Shown here: positions 4,617 through 45,484 of the stretch, one piece after another | Layout: each line of letters starts with the position of its first letter | How positions within the stretch are numbered: the first letter of the stretch is position 1 | Origin: Atractiella rhizophila | Lineage: Eukaryota | Reading direction: 5' to 3' | Assembly (NCBI GenBank): GCA_021432655.1 | Contig: MU271244.1 | Coordinates: 1 to 58,303 of the forward strand | Length of the DNA stretch: 58,303 nt | Made by a program: the position numbers and the translations under genes | The notes under the pieces: model-generated | The model's database searches: none | What the model was told of the DNA's origin: nothing | What the model saw: the letters and a program-made list of their open reading frames with translations, nothing else

Positions 4617-6843
4617 ATGTCATCGCTTCCTAGCAGGAAGAAGCAAATCTTGAAGGATATGCGCTAGTGCTGATAAATGGCGATTCTTACGCGGTTTGCT
4701 CGCCTTAGCTCTTTCTTCCGTCATCTAAGCTGAAGCACCAGTTCCATCCCAAATTTTTCGACAAGACGATTGAGGACTCCGGAGCTGTTGCGTCCCGCGA
4801 ATTACGTTCATGCCTCAGCATGTCACTTTCTCTCCCAGCCGTTGCAGGCTCATTGTTCAATATTTTGGCGACGAGATACCTGACTCACTGGTTGGAAAAG
4901 GAAGGAATAGACAAGGCTCCCGTCAAGAGGGTGAACCTCTTTGTTAGCACATTTGGAAAGGAGGTAGATGGGTTCAGCATGAATGAGGTGTAGGAAGGTC
5001 CTGAATCCATTTACAAACGAGTGAAACGTGTGCCTTTCCTCCCTAGTCAGCTTTAACTTCTTTCTGACCTCATGCGCACTGCTTGTGATGCTAGTGTGCA
5101 TTGAAACTCAAGCTCCTCATGACCTCTGTCGCGCCGTCCTTTTCATAGGCATGGACGAAGAGCGATATGCCCCTCTCCTCCAACGTGCAAAGGTGCTTGC
5201 CCAGCAAGTCCCGCTCTTCGCGATGTCTCGCACGCATGTCCCGGCATCGATACGATGCTTAAATCTACAAGTAGTGGACGGGAAAGGATGCGACGTGCTT
5301 CAGAAACCTCCTCCGGGAAGTACTGGTTCGTTGACAAATGATTACCCTTTAGGAAAGGAAGCGCGCGCTGACATAGTGGACAGGGACGGTCGAAAGTGTG
5401 CAAGATAAAGAGGACGAAACTGAGAGGCCAAAAAAGAAGAAGGTCTGCTCTTACCTTCCTTCTTATGGCGAGACTTATACATGAACTCAGCGTTGGAATG
5501 TGTCGAGAGATGGACAATTCGAACCACAAGCATCACAAGACATTCTTCAGATTATGAAGCTTTCAAATGTAGAGCCATCTCCTTCTGGTCGTAACTAAAT
5601 GGAGTCCACATAGCCAAGTACGACTCGCGTCCTCGGTGATAAAACCAAGTCTGCGTCAACGTCTATGGATGCTCCTTCTGTTCTGATATCATCAAACGAA
5701 TCTCTCGCTCAGCTTCAAGCAGAGTATATCCTGGTTTGTTGCTCGTGCCTGCACGCAGTCGCCAATTAAGTTGTCTGCTGCAGCCCGATGAAATTGAAGA
5801 ACCACGATGCCCCCTTTTGGCTCGAAAACTCGACGCTTCCTTTAAACCTGATATGAAAGTTCAGCTTGAAGATCTGGTGGGCAGCCGTCCCGTGCGAACA
5901 TGCCTCATCTCGTCTTGCGTTGAAATTGTGATAGGACGAGAAAAAGCCCTTCCTGGATCAATGTGTCAAATCGGGGGATGTTGACCGGCTTGACACGAGC
6001 TGTGAGAAAGTGGAAACCACCTCGCAGGTGCGAATCTTGAATCCATTCACTGGCTCCAATTAATAATTCGAGGTTCAAGGGAATGACAGGTTCCGGGAAA
6101 GACGCTGACGCTTCGACAACTCAAATCGACATCTCTAAGGTGCTTTATTTGGTTAATTGCTAATCTCCTGTCTAATTCTCTACAGCCATTGACCAGACAG
6201 AATCCACCATTGTGTCCCGAGTTCTATTACTTCGCTCGAGACCACAGCGGTGGTGAAGCTTGGTGTTCCAATCCCTCTTGCGGATACAGTCACAACTATA
6301 CTCTGACGGCCGATCAAAGGATCGATTTTTCGCAGCGATGGTCACACTTATGTTGGGAAAGTGACCAATCGTTGTCCCATGAATCTTCCTCGCCCAACGT
6401 TGATTCTCGATTCAGACAAGGTGCTGTTCTGCCACTGCCGTCTCTCTCGTCTTCAGTTTCTGACAGTTCAGCCATCTCAGCCATTTATTGCGCAAGACCC
6501 TCCCCTTTGTCATCGTCACTACTTCCTGAATCTCGTCGATGGCTCGATGACAGAGTGTGATAGAGTGCATCGAATCGAACGTGCGAGTCACGAGTACCAG
6601 CTGAACGAAGGACAGCGCGTCCTGTACAATCTACAGGCGTTGCACAGATCTTGTTTTCAAGGTGAAAGGATCATTTGCCCCGTTTTCCACCCAAAGAAAG
6701 GCGAACTCCATTCGTGTCCCTTTGGCTTAATCCATCTCAGTCAGGTGAGCGGCGATAGTTTATTCTTGAAGGACTGACTGAAGTTCATTTAGTTGACCAC
6801 AGAGGAGCGGGTGAGATACGAGGCAAGTCCGCTGTTTTCATAA
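4617..6843 (+). pseudogene. Degenerate paralog of the 9159-10943 gene (DUF7923-like N-terminal domain plus tandem CCCH-type zinc fingers)
   Basis: GYALVLINGDSY, PVKRVNLFVSTFG, HDLCRAVLF and PPLCPEFYY..C....C.YSH.Y.LT match the second copy. ATG 4617 is out of frame with the GYALVLING block, and there is an in-frame TAG at 4991-4993 (MNEV*EG vs MTEVPD). Confidence 0.7.
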
Positions 6844-26574: not shown

Positions 26575-26716
26575 ACAGACCACGACCGAGCCGTATCTGA
26601 AGCCATATCGAACGAATTGATTCTGTGTTACGGGTGCAGATACGATACGATACGGCTCCAGAGCCGCCTCGAATCGAAAGCTCTAGCCGATTCGATCTGA
26701 TACGAAACCATCCCTA
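26575..26716. mobile_element. Orphan hAT-type terminus (subterminal GATAC repeats plus TIR)
   Basis: Aligns by eye with the reverse complement of 35117-35260 (shared TATCGAACGAA, GATACGATACGA and GCCGCC.CGAATCGA blocks). Ends in CCATCCCTA (reverse complement TAGGGATGG, vs TAGGCATGG at 35117). Confidence 0.7.
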
Positions 26717-28646: not shown

Positions 28647-30236
28647 TCAGTCAGTTATACGACCGAACCCAATGTCATCTATCATCCTCTGCCCAATCCC
28701 AATCACATCAGCAGCCCATTGTCCAAAAAATAGTTTAACAAATAAACAGCGTGTTATCTCCTCTTTGGAATACACTTGATAATCCTTAGTGAAATACCAG
28801 TGTATGAAATTTGGGAAGCCGAGGGCGCCCACTATACAGTAGTCAAGGTGTATGCGTTCTAGGCCTTTCGCATTTTTTATGGTGTCAAAGAAATGGTGGG
28901 AAACAAGGTTTGAAGTTTCCTCGCCACCATCAAGCCAAAGGTGTGTAAGGTGTGTGAGGTGTGATAGGTTTAGTGGAGTGGGTAGAATGGTGCTGCTTCC
29001 ATCCGCTGAGAAGGGTACCAGTTGGAGCTGGAGCTGCTGTAAAAGAGGCGGTAGCGGGGAGCTTGAGATCGACGGAGGGAGGGGACACATGTTGCCCAGA
29101 GACAGGGTTCTAAGTGTCTGTGGAAGGGAGAGATATGGCAGAGGTGGATAAGAAATGAGCGTGAGCTCTACGAGGTTATGAGGTAATTGAAGATAGGATG
29201 ATGCCGAAGGGGTAGACCACGAGGAAGAGTTCTCCACTTCATAAGCAGTGAGGTGACTGATCCTCGTACTCATCCTTCGCACGAAGTTCTCGACTAGCTC
29301 CTTCTTCCATTTTCTCAAACCCAACCCCCTATCAAAAGTGAATTCCCTCAATCTCGTCAAACTTTCGGTCGCATTCAACACTGCTACTGTCTCCTCTTCG
29401 TTCCAATGTGGCCCTATGACAACGTGTCTAACATTCGGCGACCCCATGATCAGCTCTTTTGCCATCCCAATGCTGATATCTTTTCCGAACTGTAGCTTTC
29501 TCCACAAGCGTCCGCCTTGAGGATACATTTTCAAATGAGCAAGTTTCTTTTCTGAGGACCAAGGTTCCTCCCAGTAAGCAGCTGAAACCATCCTCCAGAG
29601 TCTGCAGACTCCAGACAACTTACTAGCGTCATTACTACCAGCATTCGTGATTGTGAGGAAATCGAAGATGCGAGAGATAAGCTCCATAGGTATGTTGGAG
29701 ATAAGTCCTGGACTACCCTTTGGAGTTGAAGAAAGCGAGAGTTGAAAAACCATGACTTTCGGAGAAAGGGAAGTTGGGGACAACTGACTGCCAAGGATGT
29801 TAGGCGACATTCCTTCTGGAGATGAGGCGAGGGGAGTATACATGGTATGAGAGCGATCTGAAGGGAGAGAGAACGTGCGAGTGAAGCTAAAAATGTGGTG
29901 CTTGCTGTCTTGAAAGGTTAGAGCCACTTTTTTCCAGTTGAAGGTGATGCAGAAATTTGTTTCGCCATCACTTTGGGCGGCATATCTTTGGAGACATTCA
30001 AGTGAGAAAGTGGACAGCGCTGAGGGATATTCCGGTACACGACTATCTTTGAGGTCGAGAGAAAAGACAAATGTGATCTGGACCGTGGTAATTGACGGAG
30101 GTAGGCAAGATAGGAAAGAGGGAAGAAGGGATAAGGAAATCGACGTGCTCTCTGCTTCGAATGTGAAGAGATTGACAAGTCCAGTCGAATCTGGCTCCTC
30201 AGGGCTCCGTCGTAGGATAGATCCTGCCGTCTCCAT
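28647..30236 (-). CDS. F-box-like / LRR-like protein (intronless ORF, 529 aa; true start uncertain)
   Basis: ISNIPMELISRIFDFL...ASKLSGVCRLWRMVS is F-box-like, followed by LxxLxL repeats (LVELTL, LRTLSL, LTHLTHLWL, LERIHL). Confidence 0.7.
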   Translation of the reverse strand: METAGSILRRSPEEPDSTGLVNLFTFEAESTSISLSLLPSFLSCLPPSITTVQITFVFSLDLKDSRVPEYPSALSTFSLECLQRYAAQSDGETNFCITFNWKKVALTFQDSKHHIFSFTRTFSLPSDRSHTMYTPLASSPEGMSPNILGSQLSPTSLSPKVMVFQLSLSSTPKGSPGLISNIPMELISRIFDFLTITNAGSNDASKLSGVCRLWRMVSAAYWEEPWSSEKKLAHLKMYPQGGRLWRKLQFGKDISIGMAKELIMGSPNVRHVVIGPHWNEEETVAVLNATESLTRLREFTFDRGLGLRKWKKELVENFVRRMSTRISHLTAYEVENSSSWSTPSASSYLQLPHNLVELTLISYPPLPYLSLPQTLRTLSLGNMCPLPPSISSSPLPPLLQQLQLQLVPFSADGSSTILPTPLNLSHLTHLTHLWLDGGEETSNLVSHHFFDTIKNAKGLERIHLDYCIVGALGFPNFIHWYFTKDYQVYSKEEITRCLFVKLFFGQWAADVIGIGQRMIDDIGFGRITD

Positions 30237-30927
30237 TCTTTGTTGAGAGGAGTTGCCAGACTATAGCCCATAGATCCATGTTAGATGCGAAAAGAAAAAC
30301 CAAATAGCAAGAACAATCATGCCTGGATTAGATCGTCAGACAACGGCGGCCTATCCAGCTTGACCATTCTCGGCACGATGAATAGAACAGAGATTGTGAG
30401 AACGGAAAAGAAAAGAAGTGCCAGAAGGAACATTTTGCAGGAACGATGATGGATAAAGGTCCTCGCTTTGACTGCGATGGGCCAGTTGTGCAAACTGGTT
30501 GCCCCCAGGGGTGGTGCGCGCTGAGCTCCTCGTCCCTTGGGATCACATCGACTTTCTGAATAAAATTATCTTGCATGTTCAGAAAGGGGCAAGCATATGG
30601 GTTATGATGGTAGAATTCATTTCATTCTATTGTGCACGTGTGAGGGCTCAAAAGTGCATCTTATGACTCGTGCCAAGAAACCCACCGCTATTAGAAGAAT
30701 AGATAGACAACTCCAGATCTAGAGCATTCCGATATCTCGCTCGTGTTGCTCCTGTCTGTGCATGTGCTCAATGAATCGATGACGCGGGATGCAAACGACT
30801 GGGTATCATGTCACTACGATTCAACAATCCAAATCTACACTCCACAGGCTAAAGAAATCAGAAGTGAAGGTAGATTATGAGCTCTACGAGCATCCAATAT
30901 AAGATCCCTCTTTGACAGATTACCAGA

Positions 30928-33900
30928 TTAAGACCCAAGGAAATCGAAAACTGCTTTGCCGCACTCCCTTCCATCGTCCGTCAACAATACTCCTCTCACT
31001 TCGGCACTATCCAACTCGAGACCGAGATCGAATTCAAGGAAAGCGCCTCCTGGCGCTTGCACCTTTCGAGAGAAGTCGGGGAGGGCGGATAGATCGACGG
31101 TCCAGCGACAGAGCTCGAATGTCTCACCTTCACGCACACGTCAGCCTCTCAGCAGCTTTGCGAAAGAAGGGATGCATTACCTTCATCAGAATACCTGAAG
31201 ACGTTCGGATTATCGCTCGTGTACATCACAGCAGTGAAGAATGAGTCGCTCGGTCCTTCAGGTTCACCGCAGCTATCAGCGCTAGCACGAACTAATTTAG
31301 GATATACCCACCTCTAGCATACTTGCAAAACCTCGTCCTGACCCTCTGTCCCTTCTTCAACACAGCTCCTTTTTGCACCAGATATTGCAAACGATTCTCG
31401 CAAACCTCAATTCCAGCATCATTCCGAATAATATATGCTGGACGTGCATGGTAATCTTGGGGCTCCGCTGGGAGTTTGACCTCTGTGGATCGTCTGTAAG
31501 CATCCATGCACCAAATAGAGGAGAAAACGCGCTCATGCAATAAGCTCTCGGCGAAATGACGGACGATACCCAATTCTTGCCTCCCCTCAAACCCAGACCG
31601 TATCGCGCAGCGCCCTGCAGAGTAGCAATATCGCAATCCTGCGGTCTTGCAATCACACGAACTGTCTGTCCGAAGGCATGTTGGACGCGGGTGAAGAGGT
31701 ATTCGGAAGCAGAAAATCCGCCGACCATGATGATACAGTCAATGCGTTGCTGAGCTTTGCGCATTTGTTGGTCTAGGAGAAGGATGACTTGGTCTTCATT
31801 CCCACGAAAAGTTAGGAAGTCAGGAAGATGGAGGGAAATAAGAGCGAAGGTGCGTACCAACAACGGGATCAAACACCTCTCGTCGTAGGATGTGACCGGG
31901 TATGGAGAGCTCGCCGTACTCCAATCCAATAGCGGGGTCGTTACCATCCTCAACATTGAAAGTAGTGAACCGGAACCAAGTAACTGTCAACCAAGAGCGA
32001 TGTTAATTTACTTGGGGTGGGAGGGAAGAAGGAATTTCATACAGTCGTCCACTTCTCCCCTATACGCAAGTTTGTCGATCTCTGAGAAGGAGTGCATGAA
32101 GCTAGCCAAACTGGGAGGGTCGAGATGGATCGGATGATCCTTCAATCTGTCAGGTGAAAATCATCAACTTTTGTTCTTTACTCCATGATGGCAGAAAGAG
32201 GGTGGTAAACACGCACATGTTCCTCACGAGATCCCTGAACCTCAGATCTAAGAACAGACTACCACAATTCGCTCCGCTCCTCGTAACCGTCTCTGCGATC
32301 TCGAGTTGCGACAAGTTGCCGATGAGTTTGTAGACAGCTGTATCCACAGTTCCTCCGCCTACGATCCGTAGTCAGCAAGGGTTCAAGGAGAAGATGAGGA
32401 CATACCAGCATCGCAAATGATGAAGCTCTGACTCACGCGCAGTTTATGCAAGCTCGTCAGGGTGGACGCATGAATGGCCGCTGCTTCTGGTTCGCTGTTT
32501 GGGGTACGATGTTCTCAGATCCGCTCCTGCAAAGGCTAAAGAAAGAGAGGCGCATGGCTCACGTGATGATCCTCAAACGGTCCCTCCAGTTCTTATCGTC
32601 GCCTCCAGAGTTCATTACCATCCCAGCCTTGATAGCTGCTTCCCTCATCAAGGAACATCCAGCCTCATCCCAGGCTGCAGGGACAGTGAGAATTACGTCT
32701 GCTGAGTCTGATTTCATACGATACCGAGTTAAGGTTGTAGCAAAAGAGGAGGATATCACACATACCCAAATCTGCGACAGATCCAATATCCTCTGTGATG
32801 CGTGTGCGTGCATATTCCCCTTTTGCCAGCATCAGTCAAGTTGCCTGGGAAATCAAGAGCCAAGCGTACATAGACAGGTCAAATAATCCACAATCACATC
32901 TATCGGTTCCTACATCCATTCGACACAATCTCAATGCCACTCTTCGCCGAGAAATATAATGAAATGAACAAGCGCACCTTTCCTGGCGGGAGAGCGGGTA
33001 ATCGCTTATCCACCATTTCTCCGTCTCGCAACGCCGAGGGCTCGAGGAAAAGCTTGAACCATTCGCACCTGCATCAATCCCACCGTCAATATCCATCCTG
33101 ATCTTTCTCAAAAATGACAAATGATTGTGAAGGTTGAAATCGTACCGTAGCATTCCATCCATCACGGTCGCATTCTTTGCCTCCAATCCCCAAGCCAAAA
33201 TGCGTGCTTCTTCGTCCATTCTGGTCGGTATGGAGTACAACATGCAAGTTGGAACCTATCCATCAAGATACACAATCTGTGTTGAATCCACGCAGGACGG
33301 AAAATACGACCCACTTTGCGATAGGTCTCGTACGATCCGGGCCAATTTAAGATCTGTCGGATCTCAGCGTTCGCTGTCCCTCCAGTCGAGCTAGCGATGC
33401 TGGTCAATCGAGAACTTGCATAAGCAACACCCGAGAAGGTTGTCCTATTCTCTCATCCATGTCATTCAGCATCCAAAACGAGGTATGGGATAAGCGAGGG
33501 ACACACCCAAAATCGATACCCACACTCAATTTTCCTTCTTGTGGTCTCGTCGCTGGAGCATTCGGTCCCCTCGCACCAGGGGTATAAGTCATGCTCCCTC
33601 CTCCTCCACCCGTATCCTCTCCGATCCTATACGCCTGTTCGGGTTGTTGGTGTCCATTTTGTTGCTGTTGCATGGATCCAGGAGACATCGATGTTGGCAT
33701 GGAAGACAAGGAGGGGCTTCCAAAGCCGTTAAGATTAGAGCCATAGTGGCCTGAAGAGGAAGAGGGAGAAGTGACGCGAGAGGTTGGGCCGTGTGATTGC
33801 GAATGTGATGATTGAACGGGTTGGGGAGAGGAGGGGGATGGATGGGTTGTGGACGGATTAGGTTGTTTGGAGAGGGTTGGGGAGTGTAGGATTGTTGTGG

Positions 33901-34642
33901 GTGTTGGGCATGTAGCTGTTGTTGAGAGAATTGCTGTTGTTGGTGTTGCTGTATTGGAGGGGATTGAGGAGGTAAAGGAGGCAAAGGGTTGTTCTATTAC
34001 CCATGTGTATGTCAGATTCACATCCCGCTTCTAGGCTGTCAGAAGAGAAAGGAGACGAGTGAATATTCCGCTTAGATTCCATAGACTTGTGAGAAGGAAA
34101 TGACAACATTGTTACAGCCTCAGACCTGTACTTGGCTAATTCCACGCAGTGAGTGGATAGACTATTTGCCTCATCTACAGTTCTCTACAGTCACAAGTTA
34201 AGCTGACACGGTCCTTAAATGCAGACAACAGGCAACTCTCCGTATTATGCAGATCTGCGAGGCAGCCTATTGTTTCAGGCATCGGAAAATATAACAGAAC
34301 CAATCTGAGCAGAGGGTTCAGTTCTTCCATATGCAACGCAATAATATGCAGCCAAAAATTTCGAATGAAACCTCCCGAAAGAAAATCGAGAGGACATACG
34401 TAGGAATTGAGGTTGGAGCCAAACTCAGTCGGATAATTGTTATTGCTCATAAACGCCTGTCCGCCACCACCATTTCCGAAGGTGCTCCCACTGCTCATCC
34501 CGTTTCCAAAGGTGCTTCCATTGGCATAAGGACTCTGATTCCCCTGCTGTTGGTTGCCGTGGCTGTAAGGATCAGAGTCGTAGTACTGGTCTCTCGATCG
34601 TTTTGATGACTTGAACAGTCGCTTGAAGTTGGTGAGGGACAT
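30928..34642 (-). CDS. Fungal Hsp70-like (HSPA12-type actin-like ATPase) protein with an N-terminal Q/S/G/P-rich extension; many introns
   Basis: SVGIDFG|TTFSGVAY, ILNWPGS, VILTVPAAWD, EPEAAAIH, IICDAG|GGTVDTAVY, GANCGSLFLDLRF, IMVGGFSASEYL. Exon 1 (MSLTNFKRLF...NLNSY) joins NNPLPPLPP through intron 33994-34399; that link is inferred. Confidence 0.88.
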
Positions 34643-34764
34643 CGTGTGCACTCCTCAGCTGGGTATATGCGAAAGCTTGGCTGGAGACTTCTGGGAGGCG
34701 GTGGTTGTCCAGATTGCTGTTGTTAGCAAACTACAGGATTCTAAGGCTTAGTGATACAGATAAC
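34551..34764. repeat. 214-bp direct repeat, copy 1 (5' UTR plus first 30 codons of the Hsp70-like gene)
   Basis: Matches 37484-37697 at offset 2933 with 5 mismatches counted by eye, all upstream of the ATG. Confidence 0.95.
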
Positions 34765-35116
34765 TAGGCGGCCCTTCCCTTCCGTCTTGCTGATGAAGTA
34801 GTGATGGCATGGCGCAATAATTAAGATAACTTTGTGGCGCAATCAGATGCGAGATAGATGGAGATACATTAGAATATCTTTATAGAACGTTTGACACTAC
34901 AAAATAATCGTCCATATTCATATCAAAGAAGAACAACACAGCACAATTGTCCAAAGAAACCACATGCAAAGGACATGAGGGGAGGTTCCTGGTTATAAAC
35001 AATGCATACATCAACTGGACGACAGGTCAAGTGAATCAACTGACTTAGCGATGGATAGGAGTAATTGCTCTCATCCACAACCCAAGCTTCTCCATTTAAT
35101 CCGGATGTGCCTTCTC

Positions 35117-37483
35117 TAGGCATGGCTATCGAATCGTATCGTATCGGAGAGGCCCTGGTCGATTCGTGGCGGCTTATAAGCCGTAGTCGTATCGTATCGG
35201 TAGTCGTAACTCAAAATCAGCTTCGTTCGATATAGCCTCCGATACGATTTCGGCGTCGTAGGTCGATCGGCGGTACGGGTTGCTAGAAGGTGTCTGACCA
35301 CGATTCTCTTTTAATAGACAGTAATTGCCTGTGTAAATTGCATTATGAAATGAAATACAAGATGGTTATGGTAAAGACAAAATTCAGCTCTGCGCTTCGG
35401 CCAGAACCTGCATCTCGTGCACCTTTTCAGCTTCTTCCAGCTTCCTCAACAGCTCCATCCTCTCTCTTGTCCGATCTAACCTAAGCTTAGCCTTCGTAAT
35501 GATCAGCAGACGAATAGTGGAGGGCTTTAAACGATGTCTTCGGATGCCGATTGTGTCCCTTGCACCTGAAAATACCCGTTCCACACCAACAGCGCACCCT
35601 TTGAAGTTGTCAAATCTAAACATAGTAGAGGAGAGGCAGAGGACAAACCAGGGATGGAGAGTATGTCTCTTGCCATCCGAGACCATGCGGGCAGTGAGGC
35701 AGTCGATTGAGCCTTGTACCATTCGAAGATATTGACCGAAGCAGGGAGTTGTGGCTGCTTCATGTAATGATCGACTTCTTGCATGGCTTCGAACTCCGCT
35801 GCACTTGCCTCGAGATCGTCACGGTTGCCACAGTTGTCTTCGTCATTGAAAGCGTCAGTGAGATAGGATCCAGTGTATCCAGACCTGCTGGAGGTGTGTA
35901 CGGGTTGAACAGGGACGGTGCGGCCGTACTTCGGAAAGTATTTCGCTTTGAATAGTTTGATAAGATTGGTCTTATGCTCTTCAATTGCTGCTTGTTCGGA
36001 TGGGCTGAAGATTGGGCGCTGAAAGAAATTTGGTCCAAGTCGGGGATCAAGAACTAACCGTCATTTGTTAGAACAAACCGACTGAATGAGAGAGATCGGA
36101 GCTCAAAGAACTCACGGGCTGCATAGACGTAGTAAGGGGAGTCATCTGAACGATGTGGTACTCAGCAAGCTTCATGTGGGCATCCACCAGACCGATTCGA
36201 TACTCCTTTGAGAGGGGGGGAGGGAAGTCCTTAATCGTCTTTTTCAGGTGGTTGAGCAAGCCGTGATACTGAAGGAGTGTTGATGAGAGGCATGGAGCCG
36301 TTGTTGTTGACATCAAAACCGTTGCATCACGAAAAGCGGTTAGCCACTTGCAGACAATGCTAATTCCTTCCCAATCCTCTTCTGATAACCATTCCTCATC
36401 TGATACCTCGTCGTGGTCGGAATACCGATCAATAGCGGGTCTGCATTTGTTGGCAAGATCCAACATTTTGTGAGTGGAACCCCATCGAGTGCACACATCA
36501 AGAATAAGCATTCTTAGAGTTGCGTCACACATACTCTCTAGTTCTGTCAATGCCTTCTCTAATCCTAGGAGCCAGTTATTACGCCGATTAGGAGAGCTCC
36601 GAATTCCTTTTATGAAAGCGCGAAGCTTATGCACCAAGAACTTCAGTTTTACAGCTTGCAGTTGAAAGGAATGAAAGACACACTTTTGGAATAGCACCCT
36701 TGAAAGTATTGACCTCATCTTCGAAATATTCATCCTCTGCCCTCGCCTCATCATCATGAACGGTTCCAAGCTTCTCCGTTACACACTCTTGATAATTTAT
36801 CTTTCCCTTCTTCTTTTTCTTCCTGTGTCCATCAGCTTTAGCCCACACACCTAGAGAATCGAGCAGCGCAAGGACGGCAAGGTGAATGATATGCGGGAAA
36901 CAGCGTATGCGTCGTTCCTTTGGGTCAAATGGAATGCCTTGTGAAACAAATCTTCGAGCAAGGGCGGTCATCATGCTATCATTATTAGATGCATTATCTG
37001 AAGTGATACAGCCGATCTGTTCTATCCATCAGTACATATGGTGTAAATTCGAGCTGTAACTGACCTTATGAGTGATGCCAAAGTTCGTGATACACCTCCA
37101 CACTGCCTCTGCCATATTCTCCCCCTTGTGTGATCCTTGAAGCTCTGTGAAATCAAGGACAACTTCAACAACCTCCCAGTCCTTGTTGATGTAAGTAGCA
37201 GTGGTGCAGAGAAAGGGGAAGCCATTTTCAGAGGTCCATGCATCGAGAGCAAGGTTGACAGTTATATCCGCTTCCTATGCCAGATATCAATAAAAATTGC
37301 TCAAACAACTGTGAACAGCAAACCTTCAATTCTTGCTTAAGTTCTTGCATCGTAGCTTCACCTTTCTTCATCACTATTTCCCGCAACTTCTTCCTCATCG
37401 GCACTTTCATGGATTTTGCACCTGTATCAACATGATTTATCTCCTGATCACTTGCTCCACCCTCATCGTCACTATTCCATGAA
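35117..37483 (-). mobile_element. hAT-superfamily DNA transposon, 5'-truncated
   Basis: Terminus TAGGCATGG at 35117 with subterminal (ATCGT)n repeats to ~35270. Transposase lies on the minus strand. No second TIR found to the right. Confidence 0.9.
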
Positions 37484-37575
37484 TGGTTGCCGTGGCTGTA
37501 AGGATCAGAGTCGTAGTACTGGTCTCTCGATCGTTTTGATGACTTGAACAGTCGCTTGAAGTTGGTGAGGGACAT
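35384..37575 (-). CDS. Chimeric host-exon/hAT transposase gene (one apparent 1-nt frameshift near 36150)
   Basis: Catalytic motifs LALDAWTS, ITSDNASNND, IRCFPHIIHLAV, LDVCTRWGST and the C-terminal dimerisation region WSRMARDILSIPG|CAVGVERVFS. Intron 37275-37323 joins ORF 37228-37584 (host-derived N-terminus) in frame to the DDE core. Confidence 0.8.
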
Positions 37576-37697
37576 CGTGTGCACTCCTCAGCTGGGTATA
37601 TGCGAAAGCTTGGCTGGAGGCTTCTGGGAGGCGGTGGTTGTCCAGATTGCTGTTGTTAGCAAACTACAAAATTCTAAGGCTTAGTGGAACAGATAAC
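37484..37697. repeat. 214-bp direct repeat, copy 2, fused to the hAT transposase
   Basis: Near-identical to 34551-34764; supplies the ATG at 37575. Confidence 0.95.
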
Positions 37698-38411
37698 ACA
37701 ACAACGAAACCGACAAGGAAAACAATTCCTTATGGCTTATTTCGGCTCACATCCCTCGGTTACGCTTTGCCGCTCATGTGTACGAGCGAATTTATAGCCT
37801 TATTCCTGTCCGTCTCACATTGCTTGTGGACTGATCACCACCTGACGGCTCCACGTCTTCCCACAAGTTTTGATTCTATTTCAGCACGTTCAATCGTGCA
37901 GACAGAATACCGGGACAGACTTTTTACCAGCACCAAGTACAAATCCTGTTGACGATGCTTACTACCCTACTTCCTTTAACACGCACGGTTGCCACTTGTG
38001 CCGCAGACATTGGATCAGACGCAATACCATCATCTTATGCAGGAGTGTGCTCCTCTGTGGCATTCATAATCTAGCTCCTCGTCGCTGTTGGCTACTTAAC
38101 AACCATGTCTGGGTCTCCTCCCATGAAAAACGTCTCATTCTGTGCATTTTTCACTCATCCCCAATCTCTTGATCCGTGGTATTCCCTCTCTTTCGAGTTT
38201 CCAACTCAAAGATAGTTGAAAAGTGCCGAAAAATGTCCCACTTATCTGAACTCCTCCTGAAAATAACATGGACGCAGTATTCGCCATCTTTTCAAAGCTA
38301 CTTGATTTCCTGGCTGTAGGGACGCAGAACGAATCTCTTCAGTTTTCCCCATGTTATTTCCAAATGTCACATTCCCTATCATTTCGCGAATTTAGACTTT
38401 TGATATCTTTT

Positions 38412-39547
38412 TCAAGCCGTGCTTAAGTATTCGGCAAATGTCTTGGGCTTCCATTCTGGCCAGACCTTGAAAGCATTGATGCGGTCAGAAGAGTCATCAG
38501 GTCCTAAATCAAACGTAGTTGTTCCACAACCCTCAGGGATCTGCAAGATATGTTATTCAAGCTGATGGTGGTGGAGACAAAAACAAACGTAAACGTGAAA
38601 GAAGTTCACTACTCCCGCGATATCTGGCGTCATGGGAAGGTCTTCCATCTTCACGTAGACGATTTCTCCACCGTATTTGTCCTTCAGCAATTCCTGCGGC
38701 ACAATTTATTGGCAAGGATCTAGACAATTGAGAGTGAAGAGAAACACACAGCGATGTGTTTCACGCTCAGACGATCTCCTTCCAACCTCCAAGTAGAGTT
38801 GTGGAGTACCTCTTTTGGCAGCGTGGTCAACGACCAAGCGAGGAAGCGACCAACGTCAACAAATGAAGTCGTGCTCAGGAGACCGTTCCCTTCATCTAGG
38901 ACCTTCACCTTATCCATTCCGAAGAGCCTGTAGGAACAAGAATTAGTGGACCTTACCTACATTGCCATGTCATGTTTGGCGATAGAAAAGATAAACACTT
39001 GCAAAGGCACAAATTCTGCAAAAACACCGGTAAGGTAGATCGCAGTCGGGAGTCCTTCAGCTTCCGCCAGTTTGCGAATCGCGAGTTTTGCCGCAAGAGG
39101 GGTGTTTTCTGTGCGTTGTACCACATCCGTACTTTTACAACTTCAATGAGTTTAAAAGCAACCTCACCTTTGGGATTTATGCCGAATTCGGACGGCACGA
39201 AAAGCTCGATTCCCGCTTTCTTTGTCGCTTTAACTAGAGGTTCCTGTGCCAGCAGATTTTTACCAATGGTGCTGATCAGAACCTCGATCCCCTTGCCCTG
39301 AAGGGAAGCGGCAATGGTATCCGGCGTAGAGTAGTCTACTGTGACGATTTTGATGTTTGGATGAGAAGGGACATCAGGCTTGTCCTGGCGAGTCAGGATG
39401 TATATTTTTGGGACCATGGGAAGGTCCAGAAACTGAATTTCGTCTCAGGGAACCATGCTTAGCGACAGAAGATAGGTGTACACTTTGCAAGAAAGTCTGC
39501 GAGATTTTTTCGGAGATTCCTGCAATAGCGAAGGTCTTGAAAGTCAT
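38412..39547 (-). CDS. NmrA-like / isoflavone-reductase-like atypical SDR protein
   Basis: MTFKTFAIAG, YILTR, VTVDYS, GIEVLISTIG, KAGIELFVPSEFG, SFVDVGRFLA, WRLEGDRLS and C-terminal WPEWKPKTFAEYL. Multi-exon. Confidence 0.85.
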
Positions 39548-40236
39548 GTTGTGCCTGGATGTCTGGTGAGTTGCTCATGCTGAAGCTCTCTCTCATCCCC
39601 TTTTAAGGTCACTCTAGGTGCTTAGATGTCGATATGTCTCCGGCTGGAACAATGCCTCCCGCTGGAGCAATGCTTGAACGTTAGGAAGTGACTAATGGTC
39701 AAGAAGTCAGCAGGAGGCTCCCACGCCGTTTCAAATAATTTTGGCAAGGAGCAAACTGGTTCCGTTCGTTTGTGGTTTGCGTGCCGGTTGCTTGCGTGTT
39801 GACCCTTAAAGATCTTCACTGCGGATGTCACAGGCACCACCATTGATGGGCAGGGAAGCACGGCGAATAGAGCAGGTCTGATAATTAACTGCTTAACTTC
39901 AATAAAATCAATGCACAAGTTCCCGTCTCCCTATCGGCGCTAAGCAGACCCTGCTTATGAATAGCTAGGAATTAATGAATCCAGCCTGTCTGTTTGCGCT
40001 AGCCCTGTTTTATGCCGGCCGCTTCCAATTCGTCGCCGTTATTCCTGGCAGGATGTCATATCGAACCTGAATTACCTGGAGTTTTCGCTGTCAAGTTGCG
40101 TAACCCTTCATTAGGAGCAAAACCCCTGTCATCATGGCAGCCTCACCTACTAATCCTTTCGCTCGCCAAAGACGTGTGGAATGTGATCAAATATACTAAA
40201 GACAAAGGATTATCCACACTTTACATACATGTATAT

Positions 40237-40764
40237 TGTAATACGAATAACATAGATGAACATTCTTCGTACTTTATGAGTCATTTTCTTTTGTCGCAGT
40301 CTTGCTTCCGTGACCTCGTTTCTCTCCCTCACACACAACCACCATCTTCTCTGAGCTTGCCTGTATTGAGGTAGAGCTAGTGCTGTGTGTGAGGTGAGTA
40401 CTCGTTAATTTCTACCTTTATTGTGCTTTGCTCATCGGGCACTTGTTTAAGGTCACATTTCATCTCCCTTTCCGAGTTCGAGGTATTTTATCGTTCTAGA
40501 ACACTCAAAGAGGGTGTGTTATTTCCTTTTCACCCTCTTCTCGCTTATTCATGTCCGTTCTCTTTCGTAGGGCTGTGCCAACAGCCTTGTCCGCTCTCTG
40601 TTAGCCCTCGCGGACTCTTTGGGTGTTTTAGGTACGCATACTTCATTGTTACTTATGCTTCTATGTTCCTTTTCTTATACTATGCAAACCATGTTTTAGA
40701 ACCCATTATTTCGAACTCACCGCCGCTAAACGAGCCTTGCCAGCTCTCACTTAGTCGCGTTATA
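40237..40764 (+). repeat. 5' LTR (528 bp)
   Basis: Starts TGTAATACG, ends CGCGTTATA. Direct repeat of 48511-49037 with about 6 substitutions and 1 indel by eye. Confidence 0.95.
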
Positions 40765-40766
40765 CT

Positions 40767-40778
40767 TGGTAGCGAGAG
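40767..40778 (+). promoter_or_regulatory. Primer-binding site, compatible with initiator tRNA-Met
   Basis: TGGTAGCGAGAG starts 2 nt after the LTR; TGGTAGCG is the tRNAi-Met-type PBS core of yeast Ty1/Ty3. Confidence 0.7.
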
Positions 40779-40828
40779 GATTCGCATCCTCGCCTTCGAC
40801 CTCACCCTCCGCCGTCTCATCGCAGTGG

Positions 40829-42289
40829 ATGCCCTTCCTCAGGGACCTCTTCCACACAATCCGATTGGTTGCCAATCTCCCGTTCTCGTCTTACCGAGGC
40901 CTCCGCGCAACCTCGCACGCGATCACGGGCACATTCGAGCTACTCGACTCAATCGGAGACGGATCAATTTTTTCGAAAGTTATGCAAGCTCTCCGCTCGC
41001 CGTTCACGTCGTGGACCCACGGAGCACACGCCAGCGAAACCCACACACCAGTGGCTCCGCCTCCCTCGTTCACGACGCCCATGCCAGCCCAAACAGCCCT
41101 TCCTTCCGTACCTCAGCACGAGCTCCTTCCACTCATCTACGAGTTGCTTTGCGAGCAGCTAGCCGACCTCGTCGACTGCACCAGTGACCTCCTAGCCGTT
41201 CTTCTTTGGCTAGGTGTGTTCTGGGTGGTCTTCTGTCGCGGTTACGTGCTCCGAACGGTCTACTTCTTTGCGCCAGGCTGGATTCGCTTTTTTCTCCCCC
41301 AGCCTGGAGAGCAATGGCCGATCATCCCTAGCTTCATCGGAAACTGGCTCAGGTTCTTAGAAGGAAGACCCACAGTCCCTGAACCCGCACATTACCAACC
41401 CGTCGTTGCGGAAGACGAGTTCCAAACTCCAGAACCCGTCCTTGCTCACGCTTCGCCGGCTCCCTCAGCCTTCGTTCAACCCGTCTACCCATTTGCCGCT
41501 CCTTTCGTACTCGACAAAGCGAAAACAGCTTTCACCGGTACCAACTTCGACGAGAAGTTTGAGGACTACCTCGACGAAATCGAGGACTTTATTCGCTATT
41601 ACCCTGAGAAATATCACTCCGAAGAGCGCAAAATCAGCCTCTTCTGCTCGAATCTCAGGGGTACGGCGAAGAGAGTGGTGCGAAGTGAGCAGAATGGGAG
41701 TGTGCAGGGAGAATGGCCGTTCCAAACGTACAACGAAGCCGTGGATCTTATGCGCACGACTTTCGGGTCCAAGAATCAGCTCAATCTTGATATGGATAGA
41801 TTGCTCCTCATTAAGAATGACGCTACGGTCAACAAATACGTCGCGGAGCTCAATGTCCAGTTCGCTAAAGTCACCCCCGTCAACTTTCGCGAGTTTTTTC
41901 GCAAATACCTCTTCCTGAAGAATCTGAAGGAGAAGGTGCTTGTGGAAATCCTCAAGACACCCGACTACATGAGTGTTCCCTATGATCATCTCACGGAACG
42001 CGCTATCGCGCTGGACAACGCTCTCCCCGACAGCCTTGCCTCCAAATCCTCTTCTTACTCCACGAAGAAACCTTCCGGTTCCCCCTCCAATAACAATTCC
42101 GCTGCCTCCTCGAAACCGTCACTTCCCCTGGGTCCAAACAAGAAACTCACTCCTGAAGAGATGGATCGAAGGAGAGTGAACAAGCTCTGCTTGTACTGTG
42201 GATTGCACTCGCAAGACACGGAGTGCACGGCGAGGAAGAACAACGAGAAGGGAAAAGAGAAGGAGGGCGGCTCGAAGTCAAAAAACTAG
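40829..42289 (+). CDS. gag: Retrotransposon Gag with an N-terminal hydrophobic extension
   Basis: Capsid-like FEDYLDEIE...[14 protein letters not shown] and C-terminal [21 protein letters not shown]...C knuckle-like motif. First ATG at 40829. Confidence 0.88.
42280..42286 (+). promoter_or_regulatory. -1 ribosomal frameshift slippery heptamer (gag-pol)
   Basis: A AAA AAC in the gag frame immediately before the gag TAG; pol (KKLESS...) is in the -1 frame. Confidence 0.8.
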
Positions 42290-43918
42290 AGTCGTCCGGG
42301 GTGGAGCAGAGCTCTTCGGACTTGAATGCACTATCTGCATCATGCCACCGTCCCTCGAAGAGTCGCCAACGCTCTCTCCACCTTAATTCGTTCGGGACGG
42401 ATTGGGAAGATCAGATTGTCGTGAGGGGAACGCTCAACGGCAATTTAGCCTCAGTCTTCCACGATTCCGGCTGTCTAGGCGACACAATCGGTTTCGTAGA
42501 TCCTCGTTTTTGTCAACGTTCCAACCTCCCTCTCATTCCTTACCCCGAAATCCTACACACGGAAGGAATCGAGGGAAAACCTGGGTCCGCTATCACCCAC
42601 CACGTTATCGCCACCATCGAAATTCCTTCGATGGATGGAGTCTTCAAGTCCTTGGATGTTCAGCTTGGAGTGCTGCCAATCGCACATGCAGACGTGGTTA
42701 TCGGGAAGAAATGGTCTGCGATTTTCAATCCCATCCCAGATTTTCGCACCAATACCCTCTCCTCACGCTCAGGGGTAGAGTACCCTTCTGGCCATTCGTT
42801 CATCCCTTCCCACAACGAACTTCCACCTTCGGAGGACGAGTCAAAGAGTTATATCTCTTTGATGCTCGGCTGGCTGGGGCTCAATGCCTTCTGTCCAGTC
42901 AAGCCTTCCGCCGTCTCTCCACCCACTCCTGTGTCTCCTTTGACGTCCACTTTGGCTGCCCACAATCCCAACGTGCGCAGGACATCCTATCCGTCAAGAA
43001 GATACACTGCTCGAAGAAGCAAGTGTCGGCTTGCCTCTCTACGAATTCCACTTCGCGAGCAACTCCCTTTTTGGACGACTTGTCACTCAACATCCCCGGA
43101 TGCGCATCCAACCAAACCCAAGTCCCATTCCAACGTTCGAGTGATTAGTTCGCTTGCCATCAAGCGCGCAGCAAGAAAGAAACAACCTATGTTCATCGCT
43201 GTGGTCCGCCCTTCCTTGGAAGGCCTGGAGGAGTCAGACACCTCAGCTCCTCGTCCACACATCACAGATGTATTCCAAACGGACAACGCAGCTCTCAAGG
43301 AAGTCCTCAATGAATTTCGAGATGTCTTCTCCTCAGATCTTCCAACTGGGGTTGTCGACAGAGGCGTCTACCACGAGATTCATGAGATCCCCGGTTCTTC
43401 TCCGCCTAACCGTCCACTCTATCGCAACTCGCCCTCAGAACTAGCTACTCTGAAGGCGTGGATAGAGGAAGAGGTGGAAGCAAGTCGCATTCGTCCCTCA
43501 GACTCCCCATACGGTGCACCTATCTTATTCGTCCCAAAGAAGGATGGCAGCCTGCGACTCTGTCATGATTTCCGAGCGTTGAATCGACAGACTATCAAGA
43601 ATCGCTTTACTCTCCCTCGAATTGATGATTGCCTTGATCGACTTGTTGGCGCCAAGTTCTTTAGCAAGATCGATCTTACCAAAGGCTATAATCAGGTCCC
43701 AATTCACCCGGATTCGATTCACAAAACGGCTTTCAAGACACGCTATGGACTCTATGAATCCCTTGTCATGCCGTTTGGACTCACCAATGCCCCTGCAACG
43801 TTCCAGGCATTGATGAACAAAGTCCTCCGACCTTTCCTCGATCAGTTTGTTGTGGTCTACCTCGACGATATCCTCATCTACTCGAAGACAGCTGAAGAGC
43901 ATGCTCAACATATCCGTC
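42280..43918 (+). pseudogene. pol: Pol 5' part: aspartic protease and truncated reverse transcriptase
   Basis: FHDSGC protease motif; RT motifs [55 protein letters not shown] and [10 protein letters not shown]. Similarity stops after HAQHIR. Confidence 0.92.
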
Positions 43919-43994
43919 TATTCCATATTGAGAAAACGACAATCCTGCTCCAGTTTTATTCTCCAAGTCAACTTTAATCAATCTCTCCTTCAGC

Positions 43995-45484
43995 ATGTCA
44001 CCTTCCCCTTCATCAGCTCTTGCCGAGGCGAGCGCGATTCCACCAACACCGAAACCGAAATATGTACTCAGTACAGCCGGTGAGCTTTCTTTCCCTCCAC
44101 CGGCCTACAATTGCTAACTCCCCGCTCCAGAAAGTTTCATAGCTGGAGGAATAGCAGCGTGCGTCCCTCTCTCCGTTTCCCTAGTTTGGTCAAGCGGGAC
44201 TGATTGTTTGGGTCACAGTTGCGGCAGCGTGACCTTCACCAATCCTTTTGAAGTAGCCAAAACACGGTTACAGTTGCAGGGAGAGTTGCAAGCTAAAGGC
44301 ACGCAGAAGGTGTATAACAATGCTTTCGATGCGTTACGGAAGACGTGGAAATTTGAAGGAATCAGGGGAGTCCAAAGCGGTCTCACGGCTGCTGTGAGTC
44401 TCCTCTTCCATTACTTCACAATTTTCACCAACTGATGCAATATCTACGACTTGTACAATAGTACGGATATCAGATGGCATTGAACGGTTGTCGGTTAGGC
44501 TTTTATGACCTTTATAGAACCACTTTGAACCGGTTAGCTGGTGTTGAGGATGTTACAGCCCAACATGCTTGGAGTAGTGTCGCAGCTGGAGCAAGTAGCG
44601 GAGTGACAGGAGGTAAGCATTTTCCTCTGCCCTTACCGCCCAATCTGTTTAAACATCCTCCTTCTTTCTTTGCGAGTGAAAGTCTGACGGAATCAACAGC
44701 GATACTTGGAAACCCTCTTTTCCTCATCAAAGCGAGGATGCAAGCGTACTCATCGGCAAACCCCGTCGGCGCGCAACACAAGTACAAGAGCCCATTACAT
44801 GGCTTACAACAGATAATGAAAAAGGAGGGCACCAAGGGTATCTTTAGAGGCGTGGATGCAGCCATGTTTCGAACAGCGTGTGGGAGCTCAGTCAGTCGTT
44901 CCATCCCTCCTAGCTCCAATTGATTTTGGCTCTACAGGTTCAACTGCCAGCATACAATTTTGCCAAAAGTTCGTTCACCTCTCTTTGCATTTTTTTGATG
45001 TGGTAACAACAATACGAAACAGTCTACTTATCTCAGTATATGCCCTCCGACAGCGTCTTCACCTACATTCTCGCCTCCACCTTTTCTGGCGCTTGCGTGT
45101 GCCTCGTCATGCAGCCGGCTGGTATGTCCTTCTCTCACAACATTTCTTCCTTCATTGACCAGCCTGTAGATACGGCATTAACGAGAATGTACAATCAGTC
45201 GCCAGATGCTCTGGGACCAGATGGAAAGCCACGAGGGCTGCTTTATAAGAATCCGTTTGATTGTTTATGGAAGACATTCAAAGTAGAAGGTATAAGAGGT
45301 TGGTATAAAGGCTCGACAGCGCACTTATTGCGGATAGCACCGCATACGGTTTGTCTTCCCTTCCCTTAACGAAGAGAGGCACAAATGTTCTTTGATGGTA
45401 ACTGATCAGTTGCATACTTGTTAGGTTCTTACCCTTGTTTTCAACGAATTTGTCATCGCAGGATACCAGTCATTACGCTCATGA
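43995..45484 (+). CDS. OAC1: Mitochondrial oxaloacetate/sulfate carrier (SLC25 family)
   Basis: VTFTNPFEVAKTRLQLQGEL, YGYQMALNGCRLGFY, GNPLFLIKARMQAYS, DTALTRMYNQ and GWYKGSTAHLLRIAPHT are OAC1-type carrier motifs. Several short introns; ATG 43995, TGA ends at 45484. Confidence 0.9.

Follow-up and report, generated by a model that had tools for sequence, protein, structure and literature searches.

A fractured hAT element joined in frame to the copied start of a likely Hsp70-like gene in an assembled Atractiella rhizophila contig

The locus described here lies in a 58,303-nucleotide stretch of Atractiella rhizophila DNA (contig MU271244.1 of assembly GCA_021432655.1; the whole of this stretch is hereafter called the window) and consists of a hAT transposon, read as fractured, whose transposase frame is entered from a second copy of the start of a neighbouring gene. 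As a structure, the fusion does exist in the assembly. The fused reading frame is probably a non-functional by-product of break repair, i.e., a rearrangement scar left at a fractured hAT element. The initial annotation, made from the letters of the window, had proposed a nascent host–transposase chimeric gene; of this, the in-frame structural fusion stands in the assembly, whereas the status of a gene is not supported, in view of the truncation, the frameshift, the repair-type character of the joint and protein searches in which no annotated model of the fusion was found. The features discussed are collected in Table 1, and the contigs used for comparison come from four of eleven runs, referred to as X1 to X4, of which X3 and X4 are spliced, the shares of X5 to X11 being small.

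Table 1. Positions in the window of the fused hAT element, the two copies of the host gene start and the surrounding features
Feature	Position	Strand	Remarks
Likely Hsp70-like host gene	31357..34642 (approximate)	-	ATG 34642; exon 1 34642-34400; intron 1 34399-33994; then many short exons
Copy A of the 214-nt repeat	34551..34764	-	122 nt upstream, ATG 34642, 30 codons and 2 nt; runs on into the host gene body
Spacer between copy A and the transposon 3' end	34765..35116	.	352 nt; unique within the window (self-blastn)
hAT 3' terminal region	35117..35383	-	TAGGCATGG terminal repeat (35117-35125); TCGTATCG repeats in the subterminal part; 3' untranslated part
hAT transposase remnant, 5'-truncated as judged from sister copies	35384..37482	-	Stop at 35384
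hAT exon parts	37482-37324, 37274-37065, 37016-36684, 36625-36116, 36053-35649, 35598-35384	-	From tblastn and sister copies
hAT introns	37323-37275, 37064-37017, 36683-36626, 36115-36054, 35648-35599	-	GT..AG; 49, 48, 58, 62 and 50 nt
1-nt deletion (frameshift) relative to sister copies	36154..36155	-	One extra base behind 36154 in contigs
Joint base, matching neither partner	37483..37483	.	A in the window; host T at the matching 34550; T also first behind 37482 in the sister copies
Copy B of the 214-nt repeat	37484..37697	-	Host upstream 122 nt, ATG 37575, 30 codons; abuts the transposon

The doubled start of the host gene

All genes in the region lie on the minus strand, and a repeat search of positions 30000-45000 returned a single direct-repeat family, namely copies A and B (214 nt, 98% identity, spacing 2933), the identity being far above chance expectation. 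Blastn of one copy against the other gave 97.66% across the 214 nt, self-blastn found these 214 nt to be the only stretch that occurs twice within the window, and the initial report of a 214-bp duplicate with its copies 2933 bp apart is confirmed by both the repeat search and blastn. The repeated segment comprises 122 nt upstream of the Hsp70-like gene, its ATG and its first 30 codons. The five mismatches between the copies (at copy-B positions 37620, 37669, 37670, 37687 and 37688) all fall upstream of the ATG, with no difference in the 92 coding bases or in the 30-residue peptide, and the list of positions thereby bears out what had been said of them before. This pattern of an identical coding part with all mismatches upstream is not significant, as the clustering has P = 0.06 when five independent sites are counted and P = 0.19 when the two doublets are treated as single events; selection on the identical coding part of the duplicate was rejected on these values.

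Each copy can be followed into its surroundings on contigs found in both X1 and X2: a 446-nt contig (34706-35151, 0 differences from the window) carries the upstream edge of copy A, the spacer and the transposon end, and a 1162-nt contig (37639-38800, likewise 0 differences) links the upstream variants of copy B to the DNA past 37697, with the qualification that the assembly may itself derive from X1 and X2 and that agreeing contigs may thus not be independent. Contig depth is no measure of copy number, and a rough depth estimate, by which the shared 136 nt would be present three times and the body of the host gene twice, is not relied on.

The host gene itself is likely Hsp70-like. Its frames contain GIDFG..TTFSGVAY, ILTVPAAWDE, DAGGGTVD and MVGGFSASEYL, which, by eye, we take to be Hsp70/actin-like ATPase motifs, and the language-model features of one host exon fall into an Hsp70-family cluster (score 0.92, 171 shared features, PF00012 on 14% of the members); Pfam run on four single-exon host frames returned no family, and a PDB sequence search with one single host exon returned no match. 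The gene is spliced as expected, seven CT..AC joints being seen across it in contigs of X3 and two of these recurring in X4. Protein P0154 represents the local gene model (a 100% match to the host exons of the window), and protein P0153, encoded on another scaffold of the same assembly, represents a second, diverged Hsp70-like copy (84-93%), which shares the first 30 residues, has an 18-residue deletion and several substitutions, and may be either a paralogue or an alternative haplotype.

Within the host gene, at a C/G run (33832-33837), all contigs listed in all four runs, DNA and spliced alike, have one base more than the window. With this extra base, the gene reads from a Q/P-rich N-terminus straight into the ATPase domain, and without it P0154 ends in the wrong frame at 215 residues, which suggests that 33832 is probably a 1-nt assembly error or else a strain-specific frameshift. 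As for the neighbourhood, the gene upstream (38420-39548, minus strand) has a weak NmrA-like match on one exon frame (E 1.2e-5, 25.5 bits, cut-off 27), and a 537-residue open frame at 28647-30260 (minus strand) has a weak F-box-like match (E 0.0015, below the cut-off).

The hAT element and the frame that enters it

The introns of the transposase were placed with the guidance of tblastn and close sister copies. The first of them, 49 nt long with GT..AG borders and already proposed at 37275-37323 in the initial annotation, coincides with the stretch that a spliced sister-copy contig skips in X3. The third accounts for a frame change that is easily taken for a second frameshift, and in the sister model P0152 the peptide stretches on its two sides are likewise connected. 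In each of X1, X2 and X3, one contig steps back by 86 nt at 36652-36737 and adds two letters, so that some sister copies would be about 88 nt longer inside this third intron.

That the remnant belongs to a hAT transposase is indicated by its central exon, which matched 641 proteins at E <= 0.001 in a representative library (the best of them 40% identical), full-length fungal hAT transposases of 683-1057 residues among them, and by Pfam, which placed Dimer_Tnp_hAT (PF05699) on one of the six exon frames (35527-36060, E 1.6e-7, 31.5 bits against a cut-off of 21.4). With the break in the frame read as X, the first D (LDAWTS), the second D (SDNASNN), the CxxH motif (RCFPH) and the E (VERVFS) are colinear with four full-length fungal hAT proteins; the catalytic residues and CxxH motif named in the initial annotation are thus present if the break is read through, with the E out of frame as assembled. 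The fungal hATs P0001, P0007, P0012 and P0020 are colinear with the window copy from just before the first D to the C-terminus (36-44% identical in the central exon), but they have 230-430 extra N-terminal residues, including a Cys/His-rich stretch and a 'DQPF' region, and the window copy is without both.

How much is missing can be read most closely from the sister copies. P0151 and P0152, whose peptides are 89-92% identical to the exon pieces of the window, read '...DQPF...MPAKGT' right before 'SWNSDDEGG', which is the exact point at which the window switches to host sequence, and it is exactly at 37482/37483 that the sister copies diverge from the window. Upstream of the switch point, P0152 continues for about 320 residues, two X2 contigs continue past 37482 with 19 letters that are unlike the window and encode MPAKGT, and a spliced 1639-nt contig of X3 carries 1189 nt upstream of 37482 that are absent from the window, the sister copies thus having at least 1.19 kb more 5' sequence than the window copy. 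As they extend beyond 37482, the window copy, which starts some 40 residues ahead of the first catalytic D, is 5'-truncated and is without the DNA-binding region and the 5' end. Aligning the family copies (proteins and contigs), a check suggested together with the initial annotation, places the whole N-terminal part among what was lost. No BED-type finger was found in the window copy, and the additional residues of P0152 are likewise without a Pfam BED match; the finger and the 5' TIR are both missing from the window copy, just as first noted. Judged by these comparisons, the element is a 5'-truncated, “fractured” member of a multi-copy hAT family that has at least three copies in the assembly (that of the window and those on the P0151 and P0152 scaffolds) and is transcribed and spliced in X3.

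At the other side of the element, contigs of other copies leave the window just before 35117 (two records in X2, one in X3), and five of the seven window matches of TCGTATCG fall within 35134-35247, compared with 0.83 expected. The window also holds, at 26592-26716 on the minus strand, a solo related hAT end (TAGGGATGG...) that is 76% identical over 130 nt to 35117-35246 and has no transposase alongside; read from 26716 to 26592, it starts at the same base as the element end at 35117. The contig ends, the solo end and the clustering of TCGTATCG together mark 35117 as a true element end. At 5146-5255, an exact TAGGCATGG has a TCGTATCG repeat some 100 nt inward of it, making this a possible third end of the hAT type. 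Beyond 37697, no convincing 5' end was found in the window: the candidate at 39453-39461 has one mismatch, lies inside the NmrA-like gene and has a flank that differs from the 8 bases next to 35117. An element with a captured fragment and a distant 5' end was rejected, this sole candidate being unconvincing. Only one element end survives, and with it only one of the two flanks that an 8-bp target-site duplication would occupy.

The frame that starts at ATG 37575 stays open across 37483/37484 into transposon sequence, host codon 30 and the transposon abutting inside exon 1 (37575-37324), and the initial reading of a host start running in frame into a hAT transposase is accordingly upheld in the assembly. 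The host contributes 30 low-complexity residues only, and an in-frame joint would arise by chance alone in one case out of three. With the five introns taken out, the spliced coding sequence has 1925 nt (2 mod 3) and, as assembled, encodes 422 residues in the transposase frame followed by 110 out of frame, i.e., 532 residues with a stop at 533. The frameshift that had been suspected near 36150 corresponds to the 1-nt deletion at 36154/36155, which was recognized against the only contigs listed there, the sole contig over 36154 in X1, and likewise in X2, having one extra base; a single X at this place restores a 641-residue frame that runs to the native stop. The deletion puts the catalytic E and the dimerisation domain out of frame as assembled. 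Apart from it, there is no stop in the 1.9-kb frame and all five introns keep GT..AG, so that the hAT copy of the window is young and may be under selection.

Searches for the fusion elsewhere were mostly empty. Exon 1 of the fusion, compared with annotated proteins by a word-index search (16 candidates of 147-2000 residues, four of them scored, all from Atractiella rhizophila), matched the host part or the hAT part only, with no protein matching both; the central hAT exon had no match at high identity among 1615 candidates of 129-2000 residues in a search of the same kind, and a second such search with this exon (452 candidates) gave one 44% Mycena match and none at high identity. As word-index searches, all of these are weak evidence. 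In scans of metagenomes, nothing was found with a 28-nt pattern beside the joint, and none of the 191 pattern-matching stretches obtained with the 83-residue first exon was confirmed. Among the spliced contigs listed for X3 and X4, none lies on the copy-B variants or the joint, a missing contig cover not being evidence of silence.

Origin of the joint

The joint consists of one base that matches neither side, there is no homology between the partners, and it sits inside the element and within a single exon, not at a terminus. For the maize element Ac, Zhang et al. (2006, PMC1592236) describe transposase-made junctions as precise at the element terminus, and repair-made deletions as running into the element. 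Its position inside the element and the odd base thus give the joint of the window the signature of cellular repair rather than that of a transposase-made junction. An ordinary insertion would first have placed the element some 470 nt upstream of the host ATG, with its 3' end at 35117; a later break would have removed its 5' part; and the gap would have been closed by end-joining or template switching, in the course of which 214 nt would have been copied as a patch from the DNA lying closest on the downstream side, at a distance of 2.9 kb. Such a patch is favoured by the single-context, window-identical contigs (34706-35151 and 37639-38800) together with only 214 nt being doubled. We infer this repair route from its outcome. 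Any product of the fused frame would be without the DNA-binding part and, as assembled, also without the catalytic E and the dimerisation domain.

The order of the parts (repeat, insert, repeat) would also be obtained if a block had been inserted, i.e., if the native gene had lain immediately below what is now the DNA from 37698 onward, and a 2719-bp foreign fragment (34765-37483), made up of the truncated hAT and 352 nt of its old flank, had been captured at a staggered break in the first exon, fill-in duplicating the 214 nt. The insert does include transposon-flanking DNA that matches nothing else in the window, in keeping with this course of events. A copied fragment should, however, leave a donor locus, and in X1 and X2 a single continuous contig, identical to the window, carries both the spacer and copy A and gives no sign of a second context; a target duplication of 214 nt would, moreover, be unusual. 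We consider the insertion of such a block unlikely, and its outcome would be a scar just the same. That the host gene was duplicated in tandem and then partly deleted is conceivable but unsupported, self-blastn finding no further similarity in the window.

Could the joint, then, be a product of the assembly, with 37483/37484 absent from the genome and copy B derived from the other host-gene copy? Both partners are indeed repeated (the hAT is multi-copy, and P0153 marks a second Hsp70-like locus on another scaffold), and a probable 1-nt assembly error is located nearby. Mis-joins, however, arise in shared repeats, and the joint is a sharp switch between unrelated sequences, which reads must therefore have crossed; there is no N in the window; and the variants of copy B are linked to the DNA past 37697, those of copy A to the spacer (X1 and X2). 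No contig bridging 37483/37484 was met with among the 32 pieces listed (451 further pieces) from the four runs, nor was any contrary piece, and record 12 of X2 (34464-34713) crosses 34551 unbroken, which is hard to square with a fork toward the transposon. Of all the explanations considered, an artefact is the one to which we attach the slightest chance.

A different matter is whether the fusion is a young, expressed chimeric gene, in which the host promoter and start would drive an N-truncated transposase that might dimerise with, and poison, the active transposase of the family. The in-frame joint, the five intact introns and a single lesion in 1.9 kb agree with such a gene, as do the dimerisation domain and the DDE residues, which are conserved if the lesion is read through, and the transcription and splicing of the hAT family in X3; the lesion, too, may be an assembly error, for which 33832 sets a precedent. 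Against this, the frame shifts after residue 422 as assembled, the mismatch pattern is not significant, the joint was formed at the DNA level within one exon and not through splicing, and the DNA-binding part is absent, which is the very part kept in 76.5% of the transposon-derived domains of animal fusions. On balance, a young chimeric gene seems very unlikely. The extra base seen at 33832 in all contigs of all four runs makes single-base errors plausible in this assembly, and it is plausible that the deletion at 36154/36155 may be one of them, in which case the fusion would be an intact 641-residue frame. That this deletion is indeed such an error, and that the locus thus holds an intact fusion of the host's 122 nt, start and 30 residues with a transposase that kept its DDE core and dimerisation domain and lost its DNA-binding part, strikes us as highly improbable. 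Were the fusion both intact and transcribed, it would be a host–transposase fusion caught very early in a fungus, and would give a dated record, free of the single lesion, of how the capture of a transposase begins outside animals; its product could plausibly act as a dominant-negative partner damping a hAT family that is still transcribed. Read as a repair scar, which we prefer, the locus illustrates the ordinary reshuffling of gene starts by transposons and break repair, and shows how an in-frame host–transposase joint can arise accidentally and look gene-like in raw sequence.

Relation to known fractured elements and transposase fusions

The structure belongs to a known kind: a hAT element, fractured and sealed by a templated patch of host sequence. 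In templated (“filler”) insertions and in template-switch repair (MMBIR/FoSTeS), a deletion is sealed with a direct-orientation copy of nearby sequence, with little or no homology at the joint. The joint of the window resembles such products; a patch of 214 nt is long for end-joining filler.

Among described elements, the maize fractured Ac (fAc) and other terminally truncated maize hATs are similar in having one terminus and a partial transposase gene in or beside a host gene, and rearrangements that involve such fragments and the sequences next to them give rise to chimeric genes (Zhang, Zhang and Peterson 2006, PMC1592236). The new junctions in the maize cases are, in contrast, located exactly at the terminus and join two host paralogues, whereas in the window the junction lies inside the element, a host start is joined to the transposase frame, and a 214-nt templated duplicate is present.

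The host–transposase fusions of tetrapods (Cosby et al., bioRxiv 10.1101/2020.05.07.082677) are similar in that host and transposase coding sequence share one frame, and hAT elements supply 23.4% of them. They are spliced from separate exons, mostly keep the DNA-binding domain, are transcribed and are under constraint. The fusion in the window differs from them in its within-exon joint, in the loss of the DNA-binding part, in a host share of 30 low-complexity residues and in a frame that is broken as assembled.
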